NCBI GenBank assembly: GCA_965228895.1
Contig: OZ245842.1
Coordinates: forward strand, 5,408,001-5,472,000
Length of the DNA: 64,000 nt
Direction: 5' to 3'
DNA from: Alphaproteobacteria bacterium
GTDB taxonomy: Bacteria > Pseudomonadota > Alphaproteobacteria > SP197
Shown here: one piece after another, positions 29,795-44,966 of the stretch
Numbering within the stretch: the first letter of the stretch is position 1
Layout of the letters: each line of letters starts with the position of its first letter
Notes under the pieces: generated by a model
Databases searched by the model: none
The model's input: the letters and a program-made list of their open reading frames with translations, nothing else
Told to the model about the DNA's origin: nothing
Made by a program: the position numbers and the translations under genes

Positions 29795-30964
29795 ATGCCG
29801 CTATTTGCCGCCTTTCCGGAAGCTGAACATCGCGCGCGGCTGGCCCGCGCGCGCCATGTGCTGCGCGAGGCCGGTTTCGAAATCGCCGTCGTCATGGCGC
29901 CGGAGCATCTGTTCTATCTGGGCGGCTACGACAGCTGGGTTGCCGTCAACAGTCCGCAGGCGATGATCTTCGGTCTTGCCGACGACGACGAACCGGTCAT
30001 CGTCGTGCGCAACGTCGATCTCTCTCTCGTGACCGAGACATCCTGGGTCCGCGACATCCGCACCTATCATCTTCATGTCGACGATCCCATGGCGACCATT
30101 GCGGCGGCGGCGGAGGAAAAGGGCCTGCGCGACGGGCCGGTCGCGATCGAGACACAGTCTTACGTGGTGACCCGGGCGCTGGCCGAACGGCTCCAAGAGG
30201 CGCTGTCGCCGGCACCGCTCCGTGACGCGACCGAAGTGCTGGGCAGGCTTCGCTGGCTGAAGTCCGACCTTGAGATCGCCGCGCTGCGCCGGGCCGCCGG
30301 CTATGCCGAAGCGGGCCTTGAGGCTGCCCGGCGCACCCTTCGGCCTGGAATCACCGAGGTTGCCCTAGCCGCTGAGATCGAGGCGGCGATGCGCCGGTCG
30401 GGCAGCGACTTTTGGGCGATTCCGACGGAACTCACCTCCGGCAACCGTAACGCGGGCGGCCATGGCACGCCGAGGCTACGGGTCATCGAACCCGGCGACC
30501 TCGTGCATATGGAGTTCGCCGGCGTCGACCGGCGCTATCACGCGGTGGCGATTTCGACCATGGCGGCTGGCGAGCCGGACCGCGAGGACCGCGACCTCTA
30601 TGAGCTCACCCGGGCCTCGCTGGCCGCGGGTATGGCAGCGATCCAGCCCGGCGTGCCGGTAGCCGACGTCGAGGAGGCGTCGCTTGAGCCGTTGCACGCC
30701 GCCGGGCTGGCCGACGCGGCGATGATGCGCTTTGGCTACGGCATCGGCATTGCCTACCCGCCGGTCTGGCTCGAGACCCTGCAGATCAGCCGGGGCATCG
30801 ATCAACGCCTGGAACCCGGCATGGTGTTTGTCCTCCATGCCTGCCTCGCCCTGCCGGACCAGCAACGCGGCACCATTCAAGGCGGCACCTGGATGCTCGG
30901 CGAGGCCGGCCTGGAGATGCTCGTCGGCCCGGGCGATGTCGCGCTGGAGGTCGTGGCGGGGTAG
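29795..30964 (+). CDS. M24 (pita-bread) hydrolase, ectoine hydrolase DoeA/creatinase-like
   Basis: EHLFYLGGYD, KSDLEI, MEFAG..RRYH, GYGIGIAYPPVW; canonical prolidase metal ligands absent. Confidence 0.8.
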   Translation: MPLFAAFPEAEHRARLARARHVLREAGFEIAVVMAPEHLFYLGGYDSWVAVNSPQAMIFGLADDDEPVIVVRNVDLSLVTETSWVRDIRTYHLHVDDPMATIAAAAEEKGLRDGPVAIETQSYVVTRALAERLQEALSPAPLRDATEVLGRLRWLKSDLEIAALRRAAGYAEAGLEAARRTLRPGITEVALAAEIEAAMRRSGSDFWAIPTELTSGNRNAGGHGTPRLRVIEPGDLVHMEFAGVDRRYHAVAISTMAAGEPDREDRDLYELTRASLAAGMAAIQPGVPVADVEEASLEPLHAAGLADAAMMRFGYGIGIAYPPVWLETLQISRGIDQRLEPGMVFVLHACLALPDQQRGTIQGGTWMLGEAGLEMLVGPGDVALEVVAG

Positions 30965-30970
30965 ATTATA

Positions 30971-31008
30971 TGCTGCAGAATTGCAGCAGTTGATGGCGAT
31001 TCGCAGCA
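30971..31008. promoter_or_regulatory. Putative tandem enhancer (UAS) sites
   Basis: TGCTGCA-GAAT-TGCAGCA followed by the degenerate TGATG-N8-CAGCA at 20-bp period. Confidence 0.6.
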
Positions 31009-31050
31009 TAAAATGGGCCGTGTGATACTCGGTGCCGATGGCGACCAGTT

Positions 31051-31063
31051 TAAACCTTTGATT
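31051..31063 (-). promoter_or_regulatory. IHF binding site
   Basis: AATCAAAGGTTTA matches WATCAANNNNTTR, with an adjacent A/T tract. Confidence 0.7.
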
Positions 31064-31091
31064 TCTAATAAGAAAAAATTTCGTTCCCGAA

Positions 31092-31107
31092 TGGCATCGC
31101 CCTTGCA
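31092..31107 (+). promoter_or_regulatory. sigma54 -24/-12 promoter
   Basis: TGGCAT-CGCCC-TTGCA. Confidence 0.8.
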
Positions 31108-31180
31108 ACGATGAGGGCGGGAAGCACTGCCGCCAAGAGACCGATCAAGGGTTCCGGCGGAGAAGGGAACTGGGAGACAC

Positions 31181-32536
31181 GTGACGGGCGCCAATACGCC
31201 GACGTCGGCCAGCGACGACCTGACCGAGCAACTGACCGAGCGCGGCGTGCGCACGGTGCACGTGGTGATTCCTGATCTTGACGGTAGCCTGAGGGAACGC
31301 CGGCTGGCCCCCGGCGACCTCACCGCCGTGTTCGGCGATGACGGCAGCTTCGTCAACGTGTTGCACAAGTGGGATACCGCCGATGCGGTCTATCGCGACG
31401 GCCCGTTTGTCGGCGAGGCCATGCGGATCGACACCGCGTCGCTGCGCGATTATCCGTTTGAAGACAATGCCGCCCTGGTCTTCGCCGACTATGCCGGCAT
31501 TTCGGCGCCGCTCAGCCCGCGTGAGGTCCTGAAGACCCAGATCGCCCGCGCCGATGCCATGGGCTACGCGGTGAATACGGCGCTGGAGTTCGAGTTCATC
31601 GTCATCGACGAGACCGGCGAAAGTCTGCGTGAAAAGGGCTGGGAAGGCTTCGACACCTATGCGGTCGACAACCGCTGCTGGTCGGCGCAGTCGGCGGCGA
31701 TCTATGCGGATCTGGTGGCCGAACTGGAAACTGTCTTGGAGCGTGCGGGGGTCGGCCTGTTCGGCCTGGGCCTGGAACTGGGCGCCGGCTGTTTCGAAGG
31801 CACCTTGCGCGCGACCGATGCGCTGCGTGCGGCCGACGAAGCCGTCCTGTTCAAGACCTTCACCAAGGCATTCGCGCGGCGCAACGGCCTCACGGCAAGT
31901 TTCATGGCGCAGCTCTCGGCCAACTTTCCGGGACTGTCGGGCCATGTCCATCTGTCGCTCGCCGACAAAGAGGACGGCCAGAACCTGTTTCATGACGCCG
32001 CCGATAGCGACGGTATGAGTGCGCTCATGCGCCACGGCATTGCCGGCCTGGTCGACCTGACGCCCGATGCCTTGGCGCTGGCCGCCCATACGGTCAACGC
32101 CTGGCGCCGGCTGACGCCGGGTAACTGGGCGCCGCGCACCGCTACATGGGCGATCCAGAACTATGCCGTCGCCGTGCGCGCGGTACCGGTGCCGGAAACG
32201 GCGGCGAGGCTGGAGTATCGCCTGCCGGCCGCCGACACCAACCCCTATCTGGCGATTGCGCTGACGCTGGGCGCCGCGCTCGACGGCATCGAGAACGCCA
32301 CGGCATTGCCTGCGCCGATGGCCGGTGGCGGGCCCGACGAGACGCCGGAGGACATGCCCGGCCTGCCCCATGATCTCTTGGAGGCTGCCGATCGTTTGGA
32401 TGCCAGTCAGAAGGCGCGCGCGATCTTCGGCGATGCCTTCATCGACTACTTCGTCGCCAGCCGCCGCCGTGAAGAGGCGGTGCTGCGTCGCCATGTCAGC
32501 GCATTCGAACGCGCGCGTTACATTGAGGCCGTTTGA
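31181..32536 (+). CDS. Glutamine synthetase-like gamma-glutamyl ligase A (divergent active site)
   Basis: PDLDGSLR, LEFEF, SGHVHLS, RLEYR..ADTNPYL; NY in place of NR. Confidence 0.85.
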   Translation: MTGANTPTSASDDLTEQLTERGVRTVHVVIPDLDGSLRERRLAPGDLTAVFGDDGSFVNVLHKWDTADAVYRDGPFVGEAMRIDTASLRDYPFEDNAALVFADYAGISAPLSPREVLKTQIARADAMGYAVNTALEFEFIVIDETGESLREKGWEGFDTYAVDNRCWSAQSAAIYADLVAELETVLERAGVGLFGLGLELGAGCFEGTLRATDALRAADEAVLFKTFTKAFARRNGLTASFMAQLSANFPGLSGHVHLSLADKEDGQNLFHDAADSDGMSALMRHGIAGLVDLTPDALALAAHTVNAWRRLTPGNWAPRTATWAIQNYAVAVRAVPVPETAARLEYRLPAADTNPYLAIALTLGAALDGIENATALPAPMAGGGPDETPEDMPGLPHDLLEAADRLDASQKARAIFGDAFIDYFVASRRREEAVLRRHVSAFERARYIEAV

Positions 32537-32555
32537 ATGCTCAGGAGACGATCAC

Positions 32556-34022
32556 GTGCTTGAAGTCGATGCCTATGCCCAGGCTCCCGGGCGGGATGAG
32601 TTGATCGCCGAAGTCCGCGCCAAGATCAACGAGCTCGGGATCGATTTCATCTACTATCAGTATATCTCGATCACCGGTCGCATCATGGGCAAGGCAGCCC
32701 CCGCGCCGCACTGGGAAGCGATGGCCATGAGCGGCATCCAGACCTGGTATGGCGGCGTGACGAATGTGTTTCCCAACCGTGCCGGCGAACTGCTGGGTTT
32801 TCCATCGAATGCCCACGAGCTGATCGCGATCCCCGATCCCGACACCTTTTGTCAGTTGCCCTGGAACAAGCGTACGGCGCGTGTCTATTGCACGGTGTTT
32901 TATGGCCGCCAGCAGGAAGGCAACCCCGGCGGTTTCATGGAAGAGGACGCGCGCGGCAATCTGCGCCGCGTCCACCAGCAGTTCATGGACGACCACGACG
33001 GCATGCATCTGCGCCACGGTTGCGAGCCCGAGATGTGCTGGCTGAAAAAGGGCGAGGACGGCATGCCCGACGGCGGGCCGACCAAACCCTATGCCTATCA
33101 CATCGACCAGTTCGAAGAACTGAGCTCGGTCTATATGAAGGTCATCGACTACGGCCAGCAGATGGGTCTCGACATGATCCAGGGCGATCACGAGGACGCG
33201 CCGGGTCAGCTTGAGCTCAACTTCATGTTCGACGACGCGCTTCGGACCTGCGACCGGTTGACCACCTACCGGCAGATTTGCGCCCAGGTCGCGCGCGAGG
33301 AGGGTCTGATCGCCTGCTTCCTGGCCAAGACCTTCATGGGCATGCCGGCCAATGGTTGCCATCACAACATGTCCCTGTGGCGCGGCGGCGATGACGAACT
33401 GGTGGCCCGTGTCGACGAGCCGCTGCCGGGCGTAAAGGATGTCTTCCATCACCGCAAGGGCGGCGAGAACCTGCTGCTTGGCGAGCCCGGTGACTGGATG
33501 CCCGGACCGGTCGGCCGCCAGGCCATCGGCGGCATGATGGCGCATCTGCCGGCACTGACCGCGATCGGCGCGTCGACGGTGAATTCCTACCGTCGGATGC
33601 TGGACCTCGGCATGTGGGCGCCGGTCTATGCCGACTGGGGTTACCAGAACCGCACGACCTCGCTGCGCGTTTCCGCGCCCGGCCGGTTCGAGTTCCGCGC
33701 CGTCGACTCCATGGTCAATCCGTATTTGATGGCCGCTGCGCTTCTGAAGTCGTTCGACGACGGCATCCGAAACGACATCGACCCCGGCGAGCCGGAACAC
33801 CGCAACATCTATGACGCCATGGAAGCCGGCAAGGAGGTCAAGCGCCTGCCGCGCTATTTCGGCGAAGCGCTCGACGCGCTGGCCGCCGATGAGGTGATCA
33901 AGTCGGCGCTGCCCGGCCGGCTTTACGAGATCTATATGGAGTACAAGACTGACGAGTGGGACAGGTTCAACGCCGAAGTCAGCGAATGGGACCTGAAAAC
34001 GTACCTGGACTGCCTGCCTTAG
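32556..34022 (+). CDS. Glutamine synthetase-like gamma-glutamyl ligase B (GmaS-related motifs)
   Basis: CEPEM, DHEDAPGQLE, NGCHHNMS, NSYRR, NRTTSLR, RFEFR; AGGAG RBS before GTG. Confidence 0.88.
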   Translation: MLEVDAYAQAPGRDELIAEVRAKINELGIDFIYYQYISITGRIMGKAAPAPHWEAMAMSGIQTWYGGVTNVFPNRAGELLGFPSNAHELIAIPDPDTFCQLPWNKRTARVYCTVFYGRQQEGNPGGFMEEDARGNLRRVHQQFMDDHDGMHLRHGCEPEMCWLKKGEDGMPDGGPTKPYAYHIDQFEELSSVYMKVIDYGQQMGLDMIQGDHEDAPGQLELNFMFDDALRTCDRLTTYRQICAQVAREEGLIACFLAKTFMGMPANGCHHNMSLWRGGDDELVARVDEPLPGVKDVFHHRKGGENLLLGEPGDWMPGPVGRQAIGGMMAHLPALTAIGASTVNSYRRMLDLGMWAPVYADWGYQNRTTSLRVSAPGRFEFRAVDSMVNPYLMAAALLKSFDDGIRNDIDPGEPEHRNIYDAMEAGKEVKRLPRYFGEALDALAADEVIKSALPGRLYEIYMEYKTDEWDRFNAEVSEWDLKTYLDCLP

Positions 34023-34082
34023 AGCGGGTCGTGGTTATGTGGAACCGGTTGACGGTTCCACATAACCACGTGAATCCGCTCT
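34020..34082. repeat. Inverted-repeat element (CIR/BRU-RS-like), copy 1
   Basis: AGAGCGG/CCGCTCT termini; perfect 18-bp stem 34030-34047/34053-34070. Confidence 0.7.
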
Positions 34083-34093
34083 CACTCTATGAG

Positions 34094-34157
34094 TAGGGCA
34101 GATTCACCTTTCTTGACGGAATCGCGAAGCGATTCCATCAAAGCAGGATCTGCCCTA
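34094..34157. repeat. Inverted-repeat element (CIR/BRU-RS-like), copy 2
   Basis: TAGGGCAGAT/ATCTGCCCTA termini; inner GGAATCGC-GAA-GCGATTCC hairpin. Confidence 0.7.
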
Positions 34158-34178
34158 GAGGCGTGACGGAGACCCCTG

Positions 34179-35042
34179 ATGATTGAGCTTAGCCAAGAAC
34201 AAATCGACCGTTTCAACGACGACGGATTCCTGTTCGTCGACAACCTGATCGATGAAGAAACCGCTGAAGAGATCAAGCAGCACTATGAGCTGATGTTCCG
34301 TGGCAACTTCGAAACGGGCATTCGGCCGGACGAGGTGAATTGGCAGGAGAGCACCGGCGATCCCAGCCTGACACGTCAGATCTGCAATGGCTGGAAAGGC
34401 GATCGCGCCATCGCCCGCGTTGTCTTGCGCGAGGATATCGGCCGTGCCTGTGCGACCCTCGGCGGTTGGCCGGGCGCGCGCATCAAGGTCGACAACGTCT
34501 TGTGGAAGCCGCCGGGCACGCGCCCGCTTGGCATGCACCAGGACTCCGCCTATCTCGCCTGGATCAATCCCTCCGACATGATCAGCTGCTGGATCGCGCT
34601 TGATGACACCAGCTCGGAGAGCGGCACCATGGAACTGGTCCGCGGCAGCCACAAGTGGCGCCATGCCAAGCCGGAGGGAGAGTTTCACGGTCCCGAGGAC
34701 TACCAGAAATACATGCGTCAGGCGGCAGCGGCAGAGGGTATTGATGAACCGGACGTCGTGCCGGTTGTCGCCAAGAAAGGCGGCGGTTCGTTCCATCACG
34801 GCTGGACGTGGCATGGGTCCGGTTTCAACCGTGCGACTTATCCGCGGCGGTCACTGGTCTCACACTGCATCTCGTCGGACGCCGAGTATGTACCGGAAAA
34901 CATTGGAACCGGTACTGGTCCGATGTACGGCCGTTACATGCATCGCGGTGATCGCGTGATGGAGGAAGACTACTTCCCGATCCTGTGGACACGCGACGGC
35001 CACCGCTCGGCCTGGATCGACGGCTGGCTTGGCGCTGCCTGA
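34179..35042 (+). CDS. PhyH-family Fe(II)/2-oxoglutarate dioxygenase
   Basis: FNDDGF, HQD, WIALDD, GSHKW, HGS..N..RR. Confidence 0.9.
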   Translation: MIELSQEQIDRFNDDGFLFVDNLIDEETAEEIKQHYELMFRGNFETGIRPDEVNWQESTGDPSLTRQICNGWKGDRAIARVVLREDIGRACATLGGWPGARIKVDNVLWKPPGTRPLGMHQDSAYLAWINPSDMISCWIALDDTSSESGTMELVRGSHKWRHAKPEGEFHGPEDYQKYMRQAAAAEGIDEPDVVPVVAKKGGGSFHHGWTWHGSGFNRATYPRRSLVSHCISSDAEYVPENIGTGTGPMYGRYMHRGDRVMEEDYFPILWTRDGHRSAWIDGWLGAA

Positions 35043-35045
35043 ACG

Positions 35046-36242
35046 ATGACGCAGCGCGCCGATCACGATAACCGGTACACGCTGTTCGACAGCGTGCCGA
35101 TGATGTGTGACGTGATCGGTGCCGACGGACGCTTGCTGGCGGCCAACCGCTACCAGACGGATGCCTTAGGCTATGCGCCGGGGACACTGGACGGTATGCC
35201 GCTCGCCAACGTTTATGCCGCTTCGGCGGCGGACCTCCTTCAACGCCAGCTTGAGGATGCGGCGGCGGGCGATCTGGGCAACGAGGAAGGCGTGCCGCTG
35301 CAGCTTCGTTGCCGTAACCGCTCGCTGGTCAACGTCTTGGCCAACATTGCACGGGACCGCAACGCGATGGGCGCGCCGTTGCTGAGGCTCGCCAAGTCGC
35401 GGCCGAACGAAACGACTCTGCGTGCTGAATCGATGGCGCGTGAGAACACCGTGCTGCGCGGCATTGTCGGAACCGCAAGCGATGCCTGCTGGTGCATCGA
35501 ATACGCCGAGCCGCTTGATCTGAGCGCGCCGGAATCGGAGGTTTTGCGCCAGTTCTTCGAGAACGTTTCTTATTGGCGGCTGTGCAACGAGGCGATGGCA
35601 AAGCTCTACAAGCTTCCCGCCGACCTCGACTTCAACGAGCAGAGCGTTCGTTTCTATTTTCCGCACAGCCCGGCCAACGAGGAGTTCGTCAAGAACCTCA
35701 TTGCAGCCAACTTCAACCTCGACAACGCCTTGTCGGTCGACCAGCGCCATGACGGTACTGCCATGTATGTCGAGAACGACGTGCGCGCCCATATTCGCGA
35801 CAGCAAGCTTTACCGGTTGTGGGGAACGGCGCGCGATATCTCCGGCTACAAGCGTAAGGAGCACGAGCTGACGCGTCGGGTCGACGACATGGTCGATGTG
35901 CTGAGCGCCGTGCCCGATCCCATTCTGGTGTTGGACGGCGACGGCCGGCTTGAGGCCGCGAACCCGGCGCTTGAGGCGGCACTTGGCTGGTCGATCGACG
36001 CCGCGTTGGGTACGGGAATCGATGACATCATCACCTTTGACGGCGGGTTCATGGCCGTCGCCGGCAGGCTTAACACCGGCACCGACGGTTTGCGCCTGCA
36101 GGTCGCGGTCACCGATACCGCCGGCGTCTCGCGCGCCTGTGACGTGACCCTGACACGGATTGACGAAGGCGGCACCGCGCCGCGCTACGTCGCGACGTTG
36201 CACGGTCTTGAGACCAATCTCGCCGTAGCGGGTGGATCATGA
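35046..36242 (+). CDS. Multi-PAS protein without an output domain
   Basis: PAS starts at FDSVP..DVIGADG..AAN and LSAVPDPILVLDGDG..AAN, plus a central PAS-like block ending GTARDIS. Confidence 0.7.
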   Translation: MTQRADHDNRYTLFDSVPMMCDVIGADGRLLAANRYQTDALGYAPGTLDGMPLANVYAASAADLLQRQLEDAAAGDLGNEEGVPLQLRCRNRSLVNVLANIARDRNAMGAPLLRLAKSRPNETTLRAESMARENTVLRGIVGTASDACWCIEYAEPLDLSAPESEVLRQFFENVSYWRLCNEAMAKLYKLPADLDFNEQSVRFYFPHSPANEEFVKNLIAANFNLDNALSVDQRHDGTAMYVENDVRAHIRDSKLYRLWGTARDISGYKRKEHELTRRVDDMVDVLSAVPDPILVLDGDGRLEAANPALEAALGWSIDAALGTGIDDIITFDGGFMAVAGRLNTGTDGLRLQVAVTDTAGVSRACDVTLTRIDEGGTAPRYVATLHGLETNLAVAGGS

Positions 36243-37684
36243 GATTTCGCGCGCTCGAGATAGGCCATACGCCGGACGGCGCGCCACCGGCCGAGCTGCT
36301 GGCTGCGCTCGCCGAACCGGCGGTCGGGGCTATCGCCGATGCGATGCCGGATGCGCTGATGGCTGTCGATGGTGCCGGCATTGTCGTGCTCGCCAATCGC
36401 GCGGCTGAAAGCGTCCACGGTTTGAAACGTGCCGATCTGATGGGAAGCAGTCTGGCCGAATTGGCTGAGACCAGCGCGCTCGACTGTACGGAACTGGTCG
36501 ACACCTTTCATAACAACACCCGCGCTGACCTCTACGCGACGACGGCGGATGGTCGCGCCATGCTGATATCGGTCAGGCCGGTCCGCGACCGCCGGCGCGA
36601 CACGGTCTTTACGTTGTTTGTCATGCGTGATCTCGACGTCATCGATCACCAGCGCAACGCCGGTGCGCCGCGGCCGGGCCAGGAGCGTTTTCGGTTCCGC
36701 AACACCAAACCGACGGATGCGACCCCGGTCGATCACATGGTGACCAGTGCTGAGCTGGAAGCTGTTATTGCTTATGGCGAGCGCGCGATGGCGCGCCGCG
36801 CGCGTGTTCTGCTGACTGGCGAGTCCGGCACCGGCAAGACTGAGATCGCCAAACACCTGCACAGCCTTGTTTGCGGCGATGCCCGGCCGTTCGTCCACGT
36901 TAACTGTGGCAGCATTCCCGAGAGCCTGTTCGAATCGGAGATGTTCGGCTACGAACGCGGTTCGTTCACCGGCGCGCTGCAGGGTGGCAAGAAGGGTCTG
37001 ATCGAGAACGCCGGCGGCGGCACGCTGTTCCTCGATGAGGTCGGCGAGATCCCGTTGATGAGCCAGGCCAAGCTCCTGAACTTCCTGGAGGACGGAACGG
37101 TACAGCGTATCGGCGCGGCGACCGCCAAGCGGGTCGATGTGCGCGTCATCGCCGCGACGAACCGCGACCTCGACCTGATGGTCGACGAAGGCCGTTTCCG
37201 CCGCGATCTCTATTTCCGTCTCAGCGTGATCGCCCTCGACGTGCCGCCGCTAAGAGGCTCCCGCGATCTGATCGCCAATCTGCTCGATCTCTTCGTGTCA
37301 CGCGTCAACAAGCAGCGCATGCCGCCGCTCCACCTCGATGATGCTTGCCGCGCGGCGTTGCTCGCACACGACTATCCCGGCAACATTCGCGAACTCGCGA
37401 ACATTGTCGAACACCTCTCCGTCGTGGCCGAGGGGGACGCGAGCCCGGCCGATCTGCCGCCATCGGTCACCGACAAAGAGATTGCCAGTTTTGTTGATCC
37501 GACTCGTGCGGGAACACCTCATGGTTTCCCGAACATTTCGCTGAAAGAGGAAGTCAGGGCCTACGAAACGCAACTTATCGGCGAAGCGATCAGGGTTCTC
37601 GGCAGCAAACGCAAGGCCGCGCGTGCATTGGGTGTCGATATCGGTACCGTGGTGCGCAAGACGCGGCGAGGATCCGGGCGTTGA
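36239..37684 (+). CDS. sigma54-dependent activator (PAS-AAA+-HTH)
   Basis: GESGTGKT, ESEMFGYERGSFTGA, LFLDE, FRRDLYFRL, PGNIREL, C-terminal HTH. Confidence 0.93.
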   Translation: MRFRALEIGHTPDGAPPAELLAALAEPAVGAIADAMPDALMAVDGAGIVVLANRAAESVHGLKRADLMGSSLAELAETSALDCTELVDTFHNNTRADLYATTADGRAMLISVRPVRDRRRDTVFTLFVMRDLDVIDHQRNAGAPRPGQERFRFRNTKPTDATPVDHMVTSAELEAVIAYGERAMARRARVLLTGESGTGKTEIAKHLHSLVCGDARPFVHVNCGSIPESLFESEMFGYERGSFTGALQGGKKGLIENAGGGTLFLDEVGEIPLMSQAKLLNFLEDGTVQRIGAATAKRVDVRVIAATNRDLDLMVDEGRFRRDLYFRLSVIALDVPPLRGSRDLIANLLDLFVSRVNKQRMPPLHLDDACRAALLAHDYPGNIRELANIVEHLSVVAEGDASPADLPPSVTDKEIASFVDPTRAGTPHGFPNISLKEEVRAYETQLIGEAIRVLGSKRKAARALGVDIGTVVRKTRRGSGR

Positions 37685-37895
37685 TACGCCATGGGTACGT
37701 GATGACTGGCGGCCGGTTGCGGCCGCCGTTCCGGGTCGTTGGCGCCCCGGCCGCTACTGAGCTGCGGACAACGCGTCATTTCAACGCCGCCCGTTCGGCG
37801 CTACAAGTAACCAATCCGGTGCAAGGCGGGGAACGCACCGGGCTTGACGGTCAACGCCGTTGGGCAACGACCAACATCCGCTAAGGAGGCTTTTC

Positions 37896-38966
37896 ATGAG
37901 GAACCTTTTATCAACTGTCGGCACCGCCGTCGCGGCGGCCTCGATTGCGCTGACCGGCCTGCCAATCAGCAATGCCTGGGCCGAAGGCGAACTGAACGTC
38001 TTGACCTGGGAAGGCTACACCGATCCCAGCTTTGTCGCGATTTTCGAGGATAAGACCGGCTGCAAGGTGACACCGACCTATGTCGGCTCGAACGACGAGT
38101 ATCCCGCGAAACTTGCGGGCGGCGGCGGCGTCTACGACCTCGTCTCGCCTTCGGTCGACACGACGACGATCTTGAGGAAGATGGGCGTCGTCGAGGAGAT
38201 CGACCTGTCGCGACTGGACGGTTTCGACAAGGTTTACGAGAACTTCCGCGACCATCCCGGCGTGACAAACGAAGGCGCGGTCTATGGCGTTCCGTTCACC
38301 TGGGGTTCGATTCCGTTCATGTACCGCGTCGACAGCTTCGATACGCCGCCGACGGCGTTTGCCGATCTGTTCGATCCTGGCCTCGAGGGCAAGGTCAGCT
38401 TGTGGGACGACAAGACCAACATCTATGTCGCTGCGCGCATGATGTTCGGCCCGGATGTCGATGTCTTCAATCTGAACGAAGACCAGCTTGCCCAGGTTCG
38501 CGACAAGCTGATCGAGATGAAGCCGCAGATCCGCAAGTACTGGTCGACGGCGGGTGAACTGGTCAACCTCTATGCCAATGGCGAGGTCACCGTCTCCAAC
38601 ACCTGGGGCGGTTATCAGTCAGCATTGTTGGCCGAGCAGGGCATCGAGATGGTCGAGTTCATTCCGACCGAGAATGCCGATGGTTGGGCCGACGCCTGGC
38701 AGATCGTCAAGGGCACGCCGAACGAAGATTGCGCCTACCAGTGGCTCAACTTTTCGCTCAGCGCGGATGGCCAGTGCGGCGTAGTCGGTATCACCGGCTA
38801 CTCCGGCTCCAATCCGGAGGCGCTCAAGACGTGCCTGACGGACGAAGAGTTTGCCGCGCTGCACCAGGACGATTTCGACTACATCAACTCGCTTGCCCTG
38901 TGGCAGGAGCCGGGTGATGTGGGCGCCTATATCGCCACCTGGAACGCGATCAAAGCGGCTCAGTAA
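37896..38966 (+). CDS. Polyamine-type ABC transporter substrate-binding protein (PotD/PotF-like)
   Basis: Signal peptide, LNVLTWEGY, YDLVSPS, VPFTWG; AAGGAGG RBS. Confidence 0.88.
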   Translation: MRNLLSTVGTAVAAASIALTGLPISNAWAEGELNVLTWEGYTDPSFVAIFEDKTGCKVTPTYVGSNDEYPAKLAGGGGVYDLVSPSVDTTTILRKMGVVEEIDLSRLDGFDKVYENFRDHPGVTNEGAVYGVPFTWGSIPFMYRVDSFDTPPTAFADLFDPGLEGKVSLWDDKTNIYVAARMMFGPDVDVFNLNEDQLAQVRDKLIEMKPQIRKYWSTAGELVNLYANGEVTVSNTWGGYQSALLAEQGIEMVEFIPTENADGWADAWQIVKGTPNEDCAYQWLNFSLSADGQCGVVGITGYSGSNPEALKTCLTDEEFAALHQDDFDYINSLALWQEPGDVGAYIATWNAIKAAQ

Positions 38967-38982
38967 CCGTCTGTTGTGTAGG

Positions 38983-39010
38983 CGGGGTCCGGTGATTGGG
39001 CCGGACCCCG
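38983..39010 (+). other. Intercistronic stem-loop after the binding-protein gene
   Basis: CGGGGTCCGGT-N6-GCCGGACCCCG. Confidence 0.55.
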
Positions 39011-39080
39011 TTCCGACCAGACCCATTTGGATTTGCTGCGCTGGGCATTCTTGGGAGCGCGCACCGAACATGCGGAAGCG

Positions 39081-40208
39081 ATGGCAAACATTCTTGAACT
39101 GATCAATGTGACCAAGACGTTTCGCGGCGGCGTCGTCGCGGTCGACGATATCTCGCTGGATATCCCCGAAGGCGAGTTCCTGACCATGCTTGGGCCTTCG
39201 GGCTGCGGCAAGACCACGACGCTGCGCATGGTCGGCGGGTTCGAATACCCGGATTCCGGCTCGATCATGCTCGACGGCCGCGATGTCACGGACGACCCGC
39301 CGTTCCGACGGCCGGTCAACATGATGTTTCAGGACTTCGCGCTGTTCCCGCACATGTCGGTGACCGATAACATCGGCTACGGCTTGAAGATTGCGGGCGC
39401 GCCCAGAAACGAGATTCAAGACAAGGTTACGCGCATGCTCGACCTGATCGAAATGCCGCAGATGGCCGGCCGTCTGCCGGCGCAATTGTCGATCGGCCAG
39501 CGCCAGCGTGTTGCCATGGCGCGCGCGCTGATCCGCGAACCGCGCATTCTGCTGCTCGACGAGCCGATGTCGGCCTTGGACGCCAAGCTGAAAGAAGCGA
39601 TGCAGATCGAGCTGCGTCATATCCATGATCGCATCGGCATCACGTTCATCATGGTCACCCACGACCAGAACGAAGCAATGATCATGTCCGACCGCATCAT
39701 GGTGATGCATGCCGGCCGGATCGAGCAGGTCGGTACGCCGACTGAGCTCTATGATTATCCCGCGACGGCCTATGTGGCGGAGTTCCTGGGTACGTCGAAC
39801 ATGCTGAAGGCAGCCGTCACCCGTGACGGTGACGGCGTCGTCGCGCAGGCAGGGGCGATTACAGTAAAGATTCCCGGCGCGTCACCCGGTATCGGCGACG
39901 GCGCGACGAAGACGCTGTTCATCCGCCCTGAAAAAATACGGCTTGTCGCCGGATCGGCGCCCGAGGGCGCGGTCACGTTCGATGGCGTCGTGCGTGAGAT
40001 GTTTTTCAGTGGCAACGCGGTTCGTCTCGATCTGGACATCGGCGCCGATCGATTGGTGATGGTGCATCACCAGCTCGACACCGGTCTGTCGCAGGCCGGG
40101 TTGCCGGTGGCGGGCGAGACGGTGACGTGTGCTATCAGACCCGATATCGTCGGCCTGTTCGACACCGCCGAGGTGGCGGCCGTCGAGGCCGAGGAGGCGG
40201 CGGCATGA
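39081..40208 (+). CDS. ABC transporter ATP-binding protein (PotA-like)
   Basis: GPSGCGKTT, LSIGQRQR, LLLDEP, VTHDQ, TOBE-like tail. Confidence 0.92.
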   Translation: MANILELINVTKTFRGGVVAVDDISLDIPEGEFLTMLGPSGCGKTTTLRMVGGFEYPDSGSIMLDGRDVTDDPPFRRPVNMMFQDFALFPHMSVTDNIGYGLKIAGAPRNEIQDKVTRMLDLIEMPQMAGRLPAQLSIGQRQRVAMARALIREPRILLLDEPMSALDAKLKEAMQIELRHIHDRIGITFIMVTHDQNEAMIMSDRIMVMHAGRIEQVGTPTELYDYPATAYVAEFLGTSNMLKAAVTRDGDGVVAQAGAITVKIPGASPGIGDGATKTLFIRPEKIRLVAGSAPEGAVTFDGVVREMFFSGNAVRLDLDIGADRLVMVHHQLDTGLSQAGLPVAGETVTCAIRPDIVGLFDTAEVAAVEAEEAAA

Positions 40209-41074
40209 ACCATCGCCTCAGACGCATGGTCGGGTTCTGGGCGCTGTTCTCCGGGCCGGCGCTGTGGTGGGGCCTGGTCTTGCTGGTGCCCTACCTGATG
40301 ATGCTGGCGATCAGCTTCTACACCCAGCAGTTCCCGTTCCACGTGCCGGACTTCCAGCTTGGTAACTATCTGACATTACTGGGTGATTCTCAATACTACG
40401 GGGTCCTCGGCCGCAGCGTGAAGGTGGCGCTCTTCGTGTCGGTGGCGGCGTTCTGCCTGAGTTATCCGCTGGCCTATTTCCTGGCTTTCAAGGTCCAGTC
40501 CAGCCGGCTGCGCATGTTCCTCTATATCGCGACCATCGTGCCGCTATGGGTGAGCTATCTGCTGCGCGCCTATACCTGGAAGACCATCCTGGGTTCGGAA
40601 GGCATCTTGAACTCGTTCCTGATGTGGCTTGGCATCATCGACCAGCCGAGCACCATCTTTCTCTATAACGAGTTCGCGATGGTCATCACCATGGCCTATA
40701 TCTTCACGCCCTTCATGGTGATGCCGATCTATGCATCACTGGAGAAGATCCCGCGCAGCCTGATGGAGGCATCAAAGGATTTGGGTGCTGGGCGTTGGAA
40801 GACGTTCATGAAGATCACCCTGCCGTTGACCATGCCGGGCATCTTGGCGGGCTTTACGTTCACGTTCGGGCTGTCGGTCGGCGACTTCATTTCGCCGATT
40901 CTGGTCGGCGGCCCTTACTCCAACATGATCGCCAATGTCGTCGCCAGTCAGTTCGGCATCTCGATGAACTGGCCGCTCGGTGCGGCGCTTTCCGTCGTGC
41001 TGTTGTTCATCGTACTCGGCATCATCACCGCCTCCGACAAGCTTGAGCGTGTCGGCCGGCTGAATATGGGTTAG
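40205..41074 (+). CDS. ABC transporter permease (PotB-like)
   Basis: PLWVSYLLR, EASKDLGA. Confidence 0.9.
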   Translation: MNHRLRRMVGFWALFSGPALWWGLVLLVPYLMMLAISFYTQQFPFHVPDFQLGNYLTLLGDSQYYGVLGRSVKVALFVSVAAFCLSYPLAYFLAFKVQSSRLRMFLYIATIVPLWVSYLLRAYTWKTILGSEGILNSFLMWLGIIDQPSTIFLYNEFAMVITMAYIFTPFMVMPIYASLEKIPRSLMEASKDLGAGRWKTFMKITLPLTMPGILAGFTFTFGLSVGDFISPILVGGPYSNMIANVVASQFGISMNWPLGAALSVVLLFIVLGIITASDKLERVGRLNMG

Positions 41075-41084
41075 GGGGAGCAAG

Positions 41085-41936
41085 ATGGCTGTCTTAACCG
41101 CAGAAGGAACCGCCGGTGCCACGCAGCGGCGGCGTCCTTTCGATATCTCCAACACCACGCTGGCCGTTGCCGCGGCTTGCGTGCTGGCCTTCCTCTATGT
41201 GCCCATCGCCACCTTGATGGTGTTCAGCTTCAACGCCAATCCGGTCACCAAATTACCGCTGACCGAGTTCACCTTTGCTTGGTACGAAAAGGCGCTCAAC
41301 AATCCCGACCTGATGACAGCGGTTTGGAACAGTGTCGTTGTCGGATTGTCTGCGGTCTGTATCTGCATCGCTATTGGCGTGCCGACGGCGCTGGCGCTCG
41401 ATCGCTATAACTTCCCCGGCAAGACAATCTTCCGGCGCCTGGTCATCCTGCCGATCACGCTTCCCGGCCTGATCACCGGCGTTTCGATGCTGACCATGTT
41501 CAGAACGGCCGGCATCGAGCTCAGCCTTGTCACCGTCATCATCGGGCACGGTACGGCGCTGACGGCGATCGTCGTCACCAATGTCTTTGCGCGGCTGCAG
41601 CGCTTTGACCGCAGGATCGAAGAGGCATCGGCGGATCTGGGCGCGCGGCCCTGGCAGACCTTCCGCTATGTGACCCTGCCCAACATCAAATCGGCCCTGA
41701 TTGGCTCGTCGCTTATCTCGTTCACGCTGTCGTTTGATGAGATCCCGGTGACCTTTTTCCTGACCGGTCGCGACAACACCTTGCCGATGTATATCTGGTC
41801 GGTCATCCGGCGTGGGATCACACCGGAGATCAACGCCATTGGCACGATCATTGTCGGTGTCTCCATCATCTTGATCCTGTTTTCCGTCTTCATCATGCAT
41901 GAGGACAACCAGCGCGCGGGGCCGGTCCAGAAGTAG
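41085..41936 (+). CDS. ABC transporter permease (PotC-like)
   Basis: FLYVPI..SFN, EEASADLGA, TLSFDE, PEINA. Confidence 0.9.
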   Translation: MAVLTAEGTAGATQRRRPFDISNTTLAVAAACVLAFLYVPIATLMVFSFNANPVTKLPLTEFTFAWYEKALNNPDLMTAVWNSVVVGLSAVCICIAIGVPTALALDRYNFPGKTIFRRLVILPITLPGLITGVSMLTMFRTAGIELSLVTVIIGHGTALTAIVVTNVFARLQRFDRRIEEASADLGARPWQTFRYVTLPNIKSALIGSSLISFTLSFDEIPVTFFLTGRDNTLPMYIWSVIRRGITPEINAIGTIIVGVSIILILFSVFIMHEDNQRAGPVQK

Positions 41937-41999
41937 GCGGTTGCCTGAACCCGGGCCGCCGTGGTCTAAGCGATCGTCTTCTGTTGATCGGGGTTCGGG

Positions 42000-43607
42000 A
42001 TGGCGGACAATCAAGGCAACGGTGACGGCGCTCTCGATTTAGTCATTGTCGGCGCCGGTTTTGCCGGCCTCTACATGCTGCACCTGGCGCGTGGCCTTGG
42101 ACTGAAGGCGCGTGTGCTTGAGGCTGGCGACGGCGTCGGCGGCACATGGTACTGGAACCGCTATCCCGGCGCGCGCTGCGATGTCGAGAGCATGGAGTAC
42201 TCCTATCAATTCTGTCCGGAGCTGGAACAGGAATGGGAGTGGTCGGAACGCTACGCACCGCAGCCGGAGATCCTGCGCTACGCCAATCACGTTGCCGACC
42301 GGTTTGACCTGCGCGACGATATCCAGTTCGAGACTCGGGTCACAGCCGCGACCTTCGACGACCGCTCGGGAACATGGGCCGTCGAGACCGATGATAGCGG
42401 CACGCTCGAAACCCGGTTCGTGGTCATGGCGACAGGCTGCCTGTCGTCCGCCAATACGCCGGCGATCAAGGGTCTCGACGACTTCAAAGGTCCGATCTAC
42501 CACACCGGTACCTGGCCCCACGACGACATCGATTTCACCGGGCTTCGTGTCGGCGTGATCGGCACGGGGTCTTCGGCCATCCAGTCGATCCCCATCATCG
42601 CCGAGCAGGCGGATGAGCTGTTCGTTTTTCAGCGCACGCCAAACTATGCGGTACCGGCGCAAAATCACCCGCTGGATCCCGCCTACCAACGCGACGTGAA
42701 GGCCCACTATGGCGAACTTCGCGCCCGTGCGCGCCAGACAAAGAACGGCGTCGATACGCGTCCCAACGATGTCTCCGCGCTGGCGGTCGGCGATGACGAA
42801 CGCCGGGCCGAATATGAGGCACGCTGGGAATATGGCGGTCTGCCTTTCATGGCTGCCTTCAACGACCTCCTGATCAGGCAAGACGCGAACGATACGGCAC
42901 GCGAATTTTTGTGCGGCAAGATCCACGAGATTGTCGACGACCCGGCGGTCGCAGCGCTGCTGTCGCCCACCAATGTCGTCGGCTGCAAACGTCTGTGCGT
43001 CGATACCGGCTACTACGCGACCTATAACCGCGACAACGTGACTCTGGTCGATGTGTCGGAGTCGCCGGTCGAGCAGATTACACCGGACGGTCTGATCGTC
43101 GGCAATCGCTCATACGCGCTCGATGTCATTGTCATGGCAACCGGCTTCGACGCCATGACGGGCGCGCTTTTGAAGGTGGCGATCCAGGGCCGCGATGGTG
43201 AGCGCCTGCAGGACAAGTGGGCCGCTGGCCCGCGCACCTATCTGGGCCTGATGTCGGCGGGTTTCCCCAACCTCTTCATGGTCACCGGGCCCGGCAGCCC
43301 GTCAGTGCTGACCAACATGCTGCCGTCGATCGAGCAGCATGTGGAGTGGATCGCCGGTTGCCTCGGTTATCTGGCCGAACACGGTCACGACCGGATCGAG
43401 CCGACGCCGGATGCTGAGAACGACTGGGTCGACCACGTCAACGATCTGGCCGACCACACGCTCTATCCGACCTGCAACTCGTGGTATCTGGGCGCGAACG
43501 TCCCCGGAAAACCGCGCGTCTTCATGCCGCACATCGGTTATCCGACCTATGTCCGCCATTGCGAGCAGGTCGTCGCCAAGGGCTACGAGGGTTTCGCATT
43601 GGGTTGA
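42000..43607 (+). CDS. Type I Baeyer-Villiger monooxygenase (CHMO/PAMO-like)
   Basis: GAGFAG, GGTWYWNRYPGARCD, FKGPIYHTGTWP fingerprint, GTGSSA. Confidence 0.93.
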   Translation: MADNQGNGDGALDLVIVGAGFAGLYMLHLARGLGLKARVLEAGDGVGGTWYWNRYPGARCDVESMEYSYQFCPELEQEWEWSERYAPQPEILRYANHVADRFDLRDDIQFETRVTAATFDDRSGTWAVETDDSGTLETRFVVMATGCLSSANTPAIKGLDDFKGPIYHTGTWPHDDIDFTGLRVGVIGTGSSAIQSIPIIAEQADELFVFQRTPNYAVPAQNHPLDPAYQRDVKAHYGELRARARQTKNGVDTRPNDVSALAVGDDERRAEYEARWEYGGLPFMAAFNDLLIRQDANDTAREFLCGKIHEIVDDPAVAALLSPTNVVGCKRLCVDTGYYATYNRDNVTLVDVSESPVEQITPDGLIVGNRSYALDVIVMATGFDAMTGALLKVAIQGRDGERLQDKWAAGPRTYLGLMSAGFPNLFMVTGPGSPSVLTNMLPSIEQHVEWIAGCLGYLAEHGHDRIEPTPDAENDWVDHVNDLADHTLYPTCNSWYLGANVPGKPRVFMPHIGYPTYVRHCEQVVAKGYEGFALG

Positions 43608-43670
43608 GACCGGGTAGCCCGGTTCGTTAGATAATTGTTCAGGCTATGGTGGGTTTGGGGAGGAGCAGAG

Positions 43671-44966
43671 ATGACGCGCCACTACCTCGACCCAGCGCCG
43701 CGCAGCTATTCGTCCGCCGTCATGCTTTTGCGCCGGGGGGAACTGAAGCCGGACGACCCTGCGCGGCTCGGTAAACCGGACCTCGAGACGTGGCTTCTGA
43801 ACGACGCGGCTGACGAAACCGACCTCCTGGAACTGTTCCAGGCCTTTGCCTGGCGCATGGTCGCAGCGGGCCTACCGGTTCAACGGGTCGGCCTGAGTAT
43901 CGGCACACTCCATCCCCAACTCGTCGGTTATTCGTGGAACTGGAACAGCGATGACGGGTACTGCGATGAGCTGGAGGTCGAGGAGCGTGTTCTGACGACC
44001 GATGCCTATCGGCTTAACCCCATTTTCCAAGTCATCGAACATGGCGAACCGTTCCGTTCGCGCACGGATTTGGCTGATGGCGCGCAGCAGTCACCGCTGA
44101 TGACGGAGCTCGCCGAGCAAGGCATTGTGGAGTACGCCGCCTTGCCGCTACCCGCCGGCAGCAACGTCCACAATGCGGTGACCATCGCGACCAAACAGCC
44201 GGGTGGGTTTTCCGATGCTCAGTTCGCTGACATCAACCACTACCTCCGCCTGCTCGCGCTTCATGTCCAAAAGCACATCGCGCTCCGTATCTCGGAGAAC
44301 ATCGTCACGACCTATCTCGGTGCGGCCGCTGGCGATCAGGTGTTGCGCGGCTCGATCAAGCGCGGATCGGGTCAGCCGATCGATGCCATCATCTGGGCCT
44401 CGGACATGCGGGGATTCACGGATCTGGCGGCACAGCTGACGGAGCGGGACATGATCGCGGTGCTCGACGCCTATTTCGACCGGCTGGCAGGCTCGGTGAT
44501 GACCCATGGCGGCGAGGTCTTGAAGTTCATCGGCGATGGCCTGTTGGCCGTCTTTCCTTTTTCGCGCTTCGGCAGCGAACACGATGCCGCCACCGCCGCC
44601 ATCACCGCCGCGCAAGACGCACTTTGCGTACTCGATCAGCTGAACAAGGATGAGAGCCAATTGTCCGACATCGACGGTTGGCGGCCGCTGCGCACGGGTA
44701 TTGCTCTGCATCGCGGTGAGGTCTTTTTTGGCAATGTCGGCGCGCCGGAACGTCTCGATTTCACGGTGATCGGTCGTGCGGTCAACGCGGTCAGCCGGGT
44801 CGAGGGTCTGTGCAAGCCGCTTGGCCGCCCTATTCTAATCACACAGCCCGTCGCCGATCTGCTCAGTCTGCCGTTGGACGATTTGGGTGAACACACGCTG
44901 CGCGGATTTACCGAACCGGTTTCGATCTATGCGCCGCAGGGCGGTCCCTCCAATCCAGGAACTTGA
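43671..44966 (+). CDS. Soluble class III adenylate cyclase with GAF-like N-terminal region
   Basis: SDMRGFT, KFIGDG, DFTVIG.AVN..SR. Confidence 0.88.
   Translation: MTRHYLDPAPRSYSSAVMLLRRGELKPDDPARLGKPDLETWLLNDAADETDLLELFQAFAWRMVAAGLPVQRVGLSIGTLHPQLVGYSWNWNSDDGYCDELEVEERVLTTDAYRLNPIFQVIEHGEPFRSRTDLADGAQQSPLMTELAEQGIVEYAALPLPAGSNVHNAVTIATKQPGGFSDAQFADINHYLRLLALHVQKHIALRISENIVTTYLGAAAGDQVLRGSIKRGSGQPIDAIIWASDMRGFTDLAAQLTERDMIAVLDAYFDRLAGSVMTHGGEVLKFIGDGLLAVFPFSRFGSEHDAATAAITAAQDALCVLDQLNKDESQLSDIDGWRPLRTGIALHRGEVFFGNVGAPERLDFTVIGRAVNAVSRVEGLCKPLGRPILITQPVADLLSLPLDDLGEHTLRGFTEPVSIYAPQGGPSNPGT

Follow-up and report, generated by a model that had tools for sequence, protein, structure and literature searches.

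A conserved gene cluster associating glutamine synthetase-like ligases with a PhyH-family dioxygenase in uncultured aquatic Proteobacteria: a putative amine-scavenging module

The genome of Alphaproteobacteria bacterium (SP197), a single contig of 5.53 Mb, carries a gene cluster in which two glutamine synthetase (GS)-like ligases are associated with a dioxygenase of the PhyH family. The cluster resides in a stretch of 64,000 nt (contig OZ245842.1, positions 5,408,001–5,472,000), hereafter called the window, to which positions refer unless given in kb or Mb. The genes, identified from open reading frames (ORFs), Pfam and NCBIfam matches, are all found on the + strand at 30971–43607, and are spaced by short gaps or 4-nt overlaps. 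In order, they encode the GS-like ligases GSA and GSB, the PhyH dioxygenase, a PAS-only protein, a PAS-domain sigma-54 enhancer-binding protein (bEBP), a substrate-binding protein (SBP), an ABC ATPase, two permeases and a type I Baeyer-Villiger monooxygenase (BVMO). A preliminary description, made from the sequence alone, had listed the same co-oriented run at or near these coordinates, and had read it as a new pathway for the gamma-glutamylation of an amine. The cluster is confirmed here as real, conserved and uncharacterised, and that reading holds in outline. It is sharpened in four respects: GSB is derived from GmaS, the BVMO does not belong to the core, the pair of ligases is usual and not obligatory, and the regulatory unit is modular. 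On balance, we lean towards a nitrogen-scavenging module under sigma-54/bEBP control, in which an amine would be imported, gamma-glutamylated and then oxidized by PhyH as an N5-alkylglutamine. The data reported below establish what the genes encode, that catalytic residues are intact, that the linkage is conserved and that promoter and bEBP co-occur.

Relatives of the PhyH gene were collected by scanning genomes at the species level with two PhyH peptide patterns. The scan returned 483 relatives, and the best 80 (58–92% identity) were used as comparison loci. Gene content was assessed by tblastn with the window proteins, other flanking genes by clustering of stop-to-stop ORFs. All but one of the 80 loci are labelled as metagenome-assembled genomes (MAGs); most belong to Alphaproteobacteria (Rhodospirillales, Kiloniellales, Hyphomicrobiales), some to Gammaproteobacteria. 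The whole run of nine genes, GSA through the second permease, is found in the same order as in the window in 15 of the 80 loci, with protein identities to the window of 42–82%. These 15 loci are labelled Rhodospirillales, Kiloniellales and Hyphomicrobiales, one Gammaproteobacteria; one full-cluster record (L091) is not labelled as a MAG, and may therefore come from a culture. Of the 75 loci with at least 1.6 kb of upstream sequence, 49 have GSB immediately ahead of PhyH, and the two make the tightest gene pair, being 9–27 nt apart in most loci. At least three of the four transporter genes are present in 23/40 GS-linked loci with full flanks, versus 0/17 loci lacking GS genes, and the bEBP in 18/45 GS-linked loci. 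Conservation of the neighbourhood, proposed in the preliminary description as a check, is thus borne out by the 15 complete loci and by the GSB-PhyH adjacency. Because of these counts GSA, GSB, PhyH and the ABC importer are regarded as the core of the cluster, and the BVMO, a gene encoding a cyclase-domain protein and a gene of the M24 type as local additions. The cluster is common to many uncultured aquatic bacteria of several orders.

A similar picture was obtained within the family of the window's organism. PhyH orthologues (61–92% identity) were found in 23 of the 24 other genomes of the family, and the best matches in 16 genomes from 16 other families of the class were remote paralogues (E 1e-13 or worse) or none. 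GSB is adjacent to PhyH in 17, and GSA present in 13, of 20 family genomes, which overlap with the 80 loci and do not represent an independent sample. In a plasmid collection, no PhyH relative above 33% identity was detected among 41 matching records. The tandem arrangement of the ligases, a distinctive trait of the pathway as first described, is usual, since GSA accompanies GSB in 41 of the 45 GSB loci that extend 3.1 kb or more upstream. It is not obligatory, as the other four have lost GSA or keep a mere remnant of it, GSB is absent in one locus, and is frameshifted or interrupted in a few others. Signs of ligase decay beside an intact PhyH gene were observed in G004, where GSB contains one in-frame TGA, and in L083, L035, G041 and L021/L029/L073, where frameshifts, C-terminal GSB remnants or GSA remnants are found; some of these signs could be assembly errors.

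GSA (31181–32536, +, 451 aa) and GSB (32556–34022, +, 488 aa) match the Gln-synt_C domain with 262 and 268 bits, respectively. The likely start of GSB is the GTG at 32556, which follows an AGGAG motif, rather than the opening of the ORF at 32325; orthologues begin to align at residue 2–3 of the protein initiated at this GTG. Alignment to the GlnA of the same genome indicated that both proteins retain all six metal ligands as well as R321, R344 and R359. Residues are numbered according to what we take to be the E. coli GS numbering, in which E327 and R339 were cross-checked against a GmaS structure paper. The ammonium site is lost in both ligases, as D50 and Y179 are gone and E327 is changed to W in 44/44 GSA and 50/50 GSB orthologues. 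The ligases are accordingly predicted not to be plain glutamine synthetases, as the preliminary description had assumed. GSA and GSB score 165.4 and 240.6 bits, respectively, with the GlnA model TIGR00653 (cut-off 429.15), and 168.8 and 215.3 bits with the PuuA model NF045547 (cut-off 650); partners of the PuuB, PuuC and PuuD types are not conserved.

GSB is related to GmaS, the ligase forming gamma-glutamylmethylamide. It scores 286.6 bits with TIGR03105, the equivalog of GmaS/type III glutamate-ammonia ligases (cut-off 469.6). In the same genome, a paralogue located at ~289 kb, here called GS289, scores 302.4, and a canonical GmaS 663.1 bits. According to the RhGmaS structural study, methylamine is accommodated in a pocket made by Tyr147, Gln175, Asp177, Glu179, Glu186, Asn188 and Lys30', Arg312 polarises the ATP gamma-phosphate, and the flap Glu is replaced by Trp300 (PMC7948447). 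These residues were mapped through a HMMER alignment to 7cql, in which the chain index is 20 ahead of the numbering of the paper, and through the RhGmaS-like gene of the genome itself. Of these residues, K30', Y147, Q175, D177, E179, E186, N188 and R312 are kept in 50/50 GSB orthologues, which also carry W at the position of the flap Glu, as RhGmaS W300. GSB differs from canonical GmaS in having an insertion of ~20–25 residues after the His motif and Asn in place of His237. Its closest relative is GS289, 64% identical and featuring the same insertion. In a tree made of 25 of the 50 GSB rows, six rows of the GS289 type and three outgroups, GSB sequences form one clade (SH-aLRT 100), placed inside or beside the GS289 type in a joint clade (99), far from canonical GmaS. 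Genes of the mgsABC type, which flank the sister paralogue GS289, are linked to GSB neither in the window nor in the 52 GS-linked loci. The kinship with GS289 and the placement in the tree indicate that GSB is a GmaS-derived ligase found outside the context of N-methylglutamate (NMG) synthase. Judged by the residues named for RhGmaS, GSB is predicted to be a gamma-glutamyl-amine ligase of the GmaS type with an intact small-amine pocket. The statement that the substrate cannot be read from the sequence is thus too strict as regards its class, narrowed by this pocket; the exact substrate and the chemistry given below are proposals.

GSA scores below every NCBIfam cut-off and belongs to a lineage distinct from that of GSB. 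Its best paralogue in the genome is 42% identical, and its best relative of solved structure is 5dm3; it also matches 8wwu (E = 4.7e-32), annotated just as glutamine synthetase, which may be the structure of NpaA1. Relative to the RhGmaS pocket, that of GSA has been reshaped (Tyr147→Trp, Gln175→Ser/Gly/Ala, Asp177→Gly/Ser, Asn188→Thr, Lys30'→Arg). The residue corresponding to RhGmaS Arg312 (R339) is Tyr in 44/44 GSA orthologues; 5dm3 keeps Arg. In the locus devoid of GSB (L080), GSA is the sole ligase ahead of PhyH, which hints at a functional GSA.

The PhyH protein (34179–35042, +, 287 aa) scores 84.8 bits with PF05721 (gathering score 22), and is a bona fide member of the PhyH family of Fe(II)/2-oxoglutarate (2OG) dioxygenases. 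The HxD...H triad (H120, D122, H212) is invariant in 46 sequences, as are R223 and R224, which may be assigned to the binding of 2OG. The AlphaFold2 model (pLDDT 92.1, pTM 0.91) has the PhyH fold. The nearest solved structures, 15–23% identical, are SnoN/SnoK, MysH, human PhyH, PHYHD1, proline hydroxylases, EctD and GriE; the catalytic residues are intact and the fold is certain, which does not hold for the substrate. Scores are low with both the ectoine hydroxylase model TIGR02408 (25.7 bits; cut-off 336.5) and the methylphosphonate hydroxylase model NF052437 (23.5 bits; cut-off 500), and a search of the ESM Atlas with PhyH returned generic PhyH clusters only.

A sigma-54 (-24/-12) promoter (TGGCATCGCCCTTGCA; 31092–31107, +), featuring 1 mismatch to TGGCAC-N5-TTGCW, is located 74 nt before GSA. 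With up to 2 mismatches, the window contains 19 sites where shuffled sequence would give 30, no more than chance provides, so the single site says little by itself. Related loci with enough flank were therefore compared over up to 350 nt upstream of GSA. A sigma-54 site matching at least 9/11 positions was found in 17/17 loci with the bEBP versus 1/21 without it (background, 93 of 3544 windows). Because the site is conserved upstream of GSA together with the bEBP, the promoter that the preliminary description had set ahead of the run is judged real. The bEBP (36239–37684, +, 481 aa) has a PAS-AAA+-HTH organization (Sigma54_activat 201 bits, HTH_50), with a Walker A motif at residue 194 and a GAFTGA-type loop (GSFTGA) at residue 241. 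A rpoN gene was found in the genome, so promoter, AAA+ activator with its loop and sigma factor, which define a sigma-54-dependent operon, are all present. The PAS-only protein (35046–36242, +, 398 aa; PAS_4, PAS_9 and PAS domains), whose stop codon overlaps the bEBP start by 4 nt, is present in 19/20 bEBP loci and is the probable sensor partner of the bEBP.

An 18-bp palindrome (TGCTGCAGAATTGCAGCA; 30971–30988, no strand), read from the sequence, is a candidate enhancer (upstream activating sequence) for the bEBP; its first base, 30971, is also where the segment singled out in the preliminary description begins. Half-sites TG[C/A][A/T][G/T]CA occur at least once upstream of the GSA promoter in 16/18 bEBP loci versus 0/16 loci without the bEBP, and are often arranged as an 18-bp palindrome. 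The PAS/bEBP pair and the promoter make a detachable regulatory unit. Evidence of a second sigma-54 promoter before the SBP gene was limited to 1/29 loci with a site matching at least 9/11 positions. Predicted terminators and sigma-70 sites in 30500–45200 are not in excess over shuffled sequences, and nothing divides the BVMO gene from the permease gene. The window contains no Rfam element or riboswitch at gathering score; two sub-threshold matches in 30800–38000 are at chance level.

The importer resembles those of the Pot type. The periplasmic PotD/PotF-type SBP (37896–38966, +; SBP_bac_8, signal peptide) probably starts at the ATG at 37896, which is preceded by AAGGAGG and opens the signal peptide, the ORF opening at 37860. 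The ABC ATPase (39081–40208, +; ORF opening at 39027) just reaches the cut-off of TIGR01187, the model of the potA subfamily (358.3 versus 355.6 bits). The permeases (40205–41074, + and 41085–41936, +), both BPD_transp_1 proteins, are PotB/PotH-like (NF007044, 206 bits) and PotC/PotI-like (NF007047, 193.7 bits), respectively, both below cut-off, as is the SBP with the PotD (88.3 versus 582), PotF (79.3 versus 636) and YdcS (123.3 versus 725) models. The SBP was aligned with PotD of E. coli (1pot), and the numbering was anchored on the WTEY motif (chain positions 11–14). Of the 12 residues which we take to form the spermidine site of PotD, eight are kept (W34, Y37, S83, D168, W229, W255, D257, Y293), and four are changed (T35→E, E36→G, Y85→D, E171→N). 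The combination of an aromatic box and acidic residues would fit a cationic amine, and does not seem to be a copy of the spermidine site.

The genome contains ~14 GS-family genes (16 PF00120 matches), some of which lie in other amine systems. The GS289 cluster (~282–292.5 kb) includes a DAO oxidase, the GS-like gene, and class II GATase, GXGXG and glutamate-synthase domain genes. The three latter would correspond to MgsA-, MgsB- and MgsC-like components of NMG synthase, and an Amt transporter gene is located nearby. In the family this pairing recurs in all 23 other genomes with both matches (not in G011), a GSB-like ligase gene and a MgsA-type gene being ~80 nt apart. The order DAO-ligase-MgsA/MgsB is also found in five more distant genomes (in one, L129, the DAO side falls beyond the sequence covered). 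A third locus, at 5.12 Mb, contains the canonical GmaS (TIGR03105, 663 bits) beside a second mgsABC-like set, and a classical pair made by a GS-like gene and a Peptidase_C26 gene is found near 5.084 Mb, ~320 kb from the cluster. All 24 other family genomes hold two MgsA-type genes. Because family genomes also possess the canonical GmaS-mgsABC locus and the GS289 cluster, the GSB system probably serves a small amine other than methylamine. Two side observations may be added. At the canonical locus (~5.120–5.126 Mb), a gene for a TauD-family dioxygenase (210.8 bits with the Pfam model; 204 versus the taurine dioxygenase cut-off of 313) lies directly upstream of the mgsABC-like/GmaS genes; it represents another 2OG oxygenase gene near GmaS. 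PhyH paralogues are numerous in the genome (36 candidates, 9 matches).

By curated models and gene content, the cluster belongs to none of the gamma-glutamylation pathways that it would functionally resemble (NMG, Puu/Pau, Ipu, Tdn/Npa). All enzyme-specific (equivalog) NCBIfam scores are below cut-off, the PotA subfamily model alone being reached, in line with the earlier supposition that the genes are not orthologues of a characterised pathway. The same description knew of no pathway with a tandem ligase pair and a PhyH enzyme, and none pairing a GS-like ligase with a PhyH dioxygenase was found in the full-text literature, a scope outside which most subscription journals and supplements fall, so that an earlier description is possible. 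Similarities are closest with the NMG pathway (GmaS, MgsABC, NMG dehydrogenase). In both, the first ligase is of the GmaS type, GSB keeping the named pocket and catalytic residues of RhGmaS; the closest paralogue of GSB resides beside MgsABC-like genes and a DAO oxidase, and the net logic is the same, an N-alkyl group being oxidized and the nitrogen retained on glutamate or glutamine. In contrast to the NMG pathway, the cluster lacks Mgs and Mgd genes, and features PhyH, a second GS-like ligase and an ABC importer in place of an Amt channel.

In the Puu/Pau pathways (PuuA-D; PauA paralogues; GlnA2/3 of Streptomyces), a GS-like ligase protects the amine before oxidation, uptake is of the Pot type, and nitrogen is scavenged. 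The cluster shares with these pathways the GS-like ligase, and would share gamma-glutamyl protection before oxidation, Pot-type uptake and the scavenging of nitrogen. It differs because it lacks a FAD oxidase, an aldehyde dehydrogenase and a Peptidase_C26 hydrolase, the oxidant is a 2OG dioxygenase, and the ligases fall far below the PuuA cut-off. In the Ipu pathway isopropylamine is processed by the ligase IpuC, the P450 IpuD and the hydrolase IpuF. Compared by description, the two systems would be alike in that a small alkylamine is glutamylated and its alkyl group oxygenated while protected, and unlike in that the cluster has a PhyH 2OG enzyme in place of the P450, two ligases and no hydrolase. 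In aromatic-amine systems (TdnQ/AtdA1, NpaA1) a GS-like ligase is reported to be coupled to an oxygenase acting on the gamma-glutamyl amide (PMC11335346). The cluster differs from these systems as it has neither a Rieske oxygenase nor a GATase-like partner. Aliphatic amines seem likelier substrates than aromatic ones because the hosts are aquatic and uncultured and the GSB pocket is GmaS-like.

MysH, a PhyH-fold enzyme, performs oxidative N-dealkylation. It is among the best structural and sequence matches of the cluster PhyH, and shares with it and with PHYHD1 the same fold. PHYHD1-type enzymes are reported to be 2'-O-methyl nucleoside demethylases (PMC12709175). The chemistry proposed below for the cluster PhyH, an oxidative dealkylation releasing a carbonyl compound, is akin to that of MysH and PHYHD1; identity is ~21%, substrates are unrelated, and the two enzymes are not known to be linked to GS-like ligases.

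The favoured scheme may be laid out as follows. The PotD/F-type SBP and the ABC transporter would import a cationic amine, most probably a diamine with a short chain or a small primary amine other than methylamine. GSB would couple the amine to the gamma-carboxyl group of glutamate at the expense of ATP, yielding an N5-alkylglutamine, and GSA, whose pocket appears wider and uncharged, might glutamylate a second amino group or a bulkier related amine. PhyH would then oxidize the gamma-glutamyl amide, most simply by hydroxylation at the carbon adjoining the amide nitrogen. The resulting carbinolamide would collapse to glutamine and an aldehyde or ketone, and the amine nitrogen would join the glutamine pool without a gamma-glutamyl hydrolase. 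The PAS-only protein and the PAS-bEBP would sense an inducer and activate the promoter before GSA. What we infer in this scheme is the substrate, the sequence of reactions, the position that is oxidized and what each ligase does. Three points favour ligation ahead of oxidation: GSB and PhyH are very closely paired, the PhyH-fold hydroxylases nearest to this PhyH act on amino acids, and GSB stems from a ligase that hands its gamma-glutamyl amide on to further enzymes. Oxidative N-dealkylation is attractive because no hydrolase is conserved in the cluster, and the three enzymes would then be self-sufficient; the outcome would also match that reached by NMG synthase and dehydrogenase in the sister cluster. 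High 2-oxoglutarate under nitrogen limitation would suit a 2OG enzyme. More specifically, PhyH could be an N5-alkylglutamine dealkylase, forming with the GmaS-derived ligase a two-enzyme, hydrolase-free route from amine nitrogen to the amide of glutamine; this is proposed tentatively, as a possibility that may well fail. In that case GSA would either ligate a second amino group or, despite its GS fold, serve a purpose other than ligation. In lineages in which a BVMO adjoins the cluster, one of them, L115, with a Zn-dependent alcohol dehydrogenase, the carbonyl compound released could be a ketone derived from a sec-alkylamine.

Several observations weigh against the scheme. A small-amine pocket of the GmaS type suits poorly a PotD-like SBP with several acidic ligand residues. 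GSA lacks the phosphate-polarising Arg312, as identified for RhGmaS, and its activity as an ordinary ligase may be doubted. A carbinolamide need not fall apart by itself, and the cluster is devoid of a lyase gene. Since all 24 other family genomes have two MgsA-type genes, PhyH is unneeded as the sole outlet for gamma-glutamyl-alkylamides; none of the 24 has GSB and PhyH without NMG-synthase genes, so the comparison does not discriminate for or against the dealkylase. Moreover, among the 68 PhyH orthologues for which 3.1 kb or more of upstream sequence is available, 22 have no GS neighbour, and PhyH can therefore persist without a dedicated ligase.

These PhyH copies devoid of GS neighbours do not set apart a group of their own. 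In a PhyH tree of 46 rows (the window and 45 loci with full flanks) they are scattered, at least 7 state changes being forced by well-supported branches, and 10 by parsimony, which argues for repeated loss or rearrangement of the GS linkage and against a separate subfamily. No neighbour gene is common to all of 24 such loci. In five of the genomes concerned, chosen for their long contigs, a GS289-type cluster is found elsewhere in 5/5; one of them additionally encodes GSA, GSB and PhyH as a full set, and in one a remnant of GSB is left next to PhyH. In five loci (L100, L101, L116, L117, L092), all MAGs and four with gammaproteobacterial labels, PhyH is found amid genes for a Rieske oxygenase, another GS-like protein, an alpha/beta hydrolase, an EutQ-like cupin, a polyamine-type SBP and a DAO oxidase (for example L101, 3666–12368). 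By gene content, this appears to be an amine-catabolic setting again.

An alternative is a polyamine route of the Puu/Pau kind with PhyH substituting for the flavin oxidase PuuB. One or both ends of a diamine or polyamine would be glutamylated by the two ligases, PhyH would oxidatively deaminate or hydroxylate the far end or the chain, and the last steps would fall to an aldehyde dehydrogenase and a gamma-glutamyl hydrolase from other loci. KanJ, a PhyH-family enzyme, performs oxidative deamination. The importer speaks for such a route, since the SBP keeps the aromatic box of PotD and D168/D257 and gains acidic residues, and the ATPase scores above the PotA subfamily cut-off; ligase pockets of two sizes, small and large, would suit the stepwise glutamylation of a diamine, and Peptidase_C26 hydrolases are encoded elsewhere in the genome. 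Both ligases, however, fall short of the PuuA cut-off (168.8 and 215.3 versus 650), no gene of the PuuC or PuuD type is conserved in the 52 GS-linked loci, and the pocket of GSB matches that of a methylamine ligase. In addition, PhyH and a DAO oxidase co-occur in the gammaproteobacterial loci, and are not simple substitutes for each other. The route is deemed improbable, albeit worth consideration.

The order of the reactions might also be reversed, PhyH acting first on an imported secondary or N-alkylated amine, cleaved oxidatively, and the ligases trapping the two primary amines released. GSB would capture a methylamine-like fragment, and the amide would be passed to NMG-type clusters elsewhere in the genome. 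Two different pockets would fit two different products, two MgsA-type loci are carried by 24/24 other family genomes, and a DAO/GS289-type/Mgs-like cluster by all five genomes tested in which PhyH lacks GS neighbours. Such an order is nevertheless quite unlikely, given that the gene most tightly paired with PhyH is GSB (9–27 nt in most loci), that the nearest PhyH-fold enzymes using amino acids (GriE, proline hydroxylases, EctD) suit a gamma-glutamyl amide better than a free amine, and that nothing points to a secondary amine as substrate.

Glutamylation and hydroxylation without a hydrolase could also end in a stable product, and the cluster make a hydroxylated gamma-glutamyl compound (an osmolyte, a signal or a storage form); this is very unlikely, because an importer with its SBP, sigma-54/bEBP control and a ligase stemming from the catabolic GmaS type are typical of nutrient use, and no exporter or further tailoring gene is conserved in the GS-linked loci. 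That the genes share no pathway, being spare glutamine synthetases, a PhyH and a transporter that happen to be neighbours, would agree with the third or so of PhyH orthologues lacking GS neighbours and with the ~14 GS-family genes of the genome, and is hardly credible in view of a gene order held across orders at 42–82% identity, a transporter present only where GS genes are, the co-occurrence of promoter and bEBP, and the loss of ammonium-site residues in every orthologue.

The BVMO (42000–43607, +), whose membership had been considered uncertain in the preliminary description, is a lineage-specific neighbour, outside the core. It features two Rossmann motifs and the two fingerprints which we take to define type I enzymes, FxGxxxHxxxW[P/D] (found as FxGxxxHxxxWP at residue 162) and [A/G]GxWxxxx[F/Y]P[G/M]xxxD (found as GGxWxxxxYPGxxxD at residue 47). 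A BVMO gene is found near the cluster in the window's genus, and in just 2/43 other GS-linked loci, both Hyphomicrobiales, on the opposite strand. In these two MAGs (L115, 16634–19433, -, and L112) the protein is 55% identical to that of the window, and its gene is convergent to the cluster. A gene for a Zn-dependent alcohol dehydrogenase precedes the BVMO gene in L115, which suggests ketone metabolism near the amine cluster. ORF clustering in the 52 GS-linked loci revealed no conserved hydrolase, amidotransferase-type hydrolase, aldehyde dehydrogenase or aminotransferase, nor any other conserved enzyme in the flanks. The commonest family consists of ABC exporter-type proteins (14 loci), and the remaining neighbours reflect lineage-specific synteny, as chvI/chvG/pckA.

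Other genes flank the cluster in the window. The M24/Creatinase_N gene (29756–30964, +), which immediately precedes the promoter, was discarded as a candidate member of the pathway, as its position is kept just in the window's genus; the best NCBIfam match of its product is the ectoine hydrolase DoeA_2 (177.6 versus 575 bits). An adenylate/guanylate cyclase-domain protein is encoded directly after the BVMO (43635–44966, +), and this position is shared by another genome of the genus. A third GS-like gene, GSC (44997–46331, -; Gln-synt_C 266 bits, below all NCBIfam cut-offs), adjoins a MFS transporter gene (46536–47762, -); GSC homologues are found beside the cluster in L044 (78%) and L032/L119 (50%). 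The gene at 47847–48995 (+) encodes a SAM-dependent carboxyl methyltransferase of the SABATH type (Methyltransf_7 121.8 bits; no NCBIfam match), a family known mostly from plants.

Gamma-glutamylation is a general way of handling amines in bacteria, and GmaS serves as a marker gene for ocean methylamine users. The cluster represents a third GmaS-like system in these genomes, beside two clusters with NMG-synthase-like genes, in which a GmaS-derived ligase would have been recruited to a different downstream chemistry, a 2OG dioxygenase replacing NMG synthase and dehydrogenase, or the flavin oxidase. Should PhyH act as a dealkylase, the cluster would provide uncultured aquatic Alpha- and Gammaproteobacteria with a 2-oxoglutarate-driven alternative to NMG synthase and NMG dehydrogenase, and a new, simple route from dissolved organic nitrogen to glutamine. 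The reaction would be a new one for PhyH-fold enzymes, and matches to the GmaS-like marker would not all report the use of methylamine.

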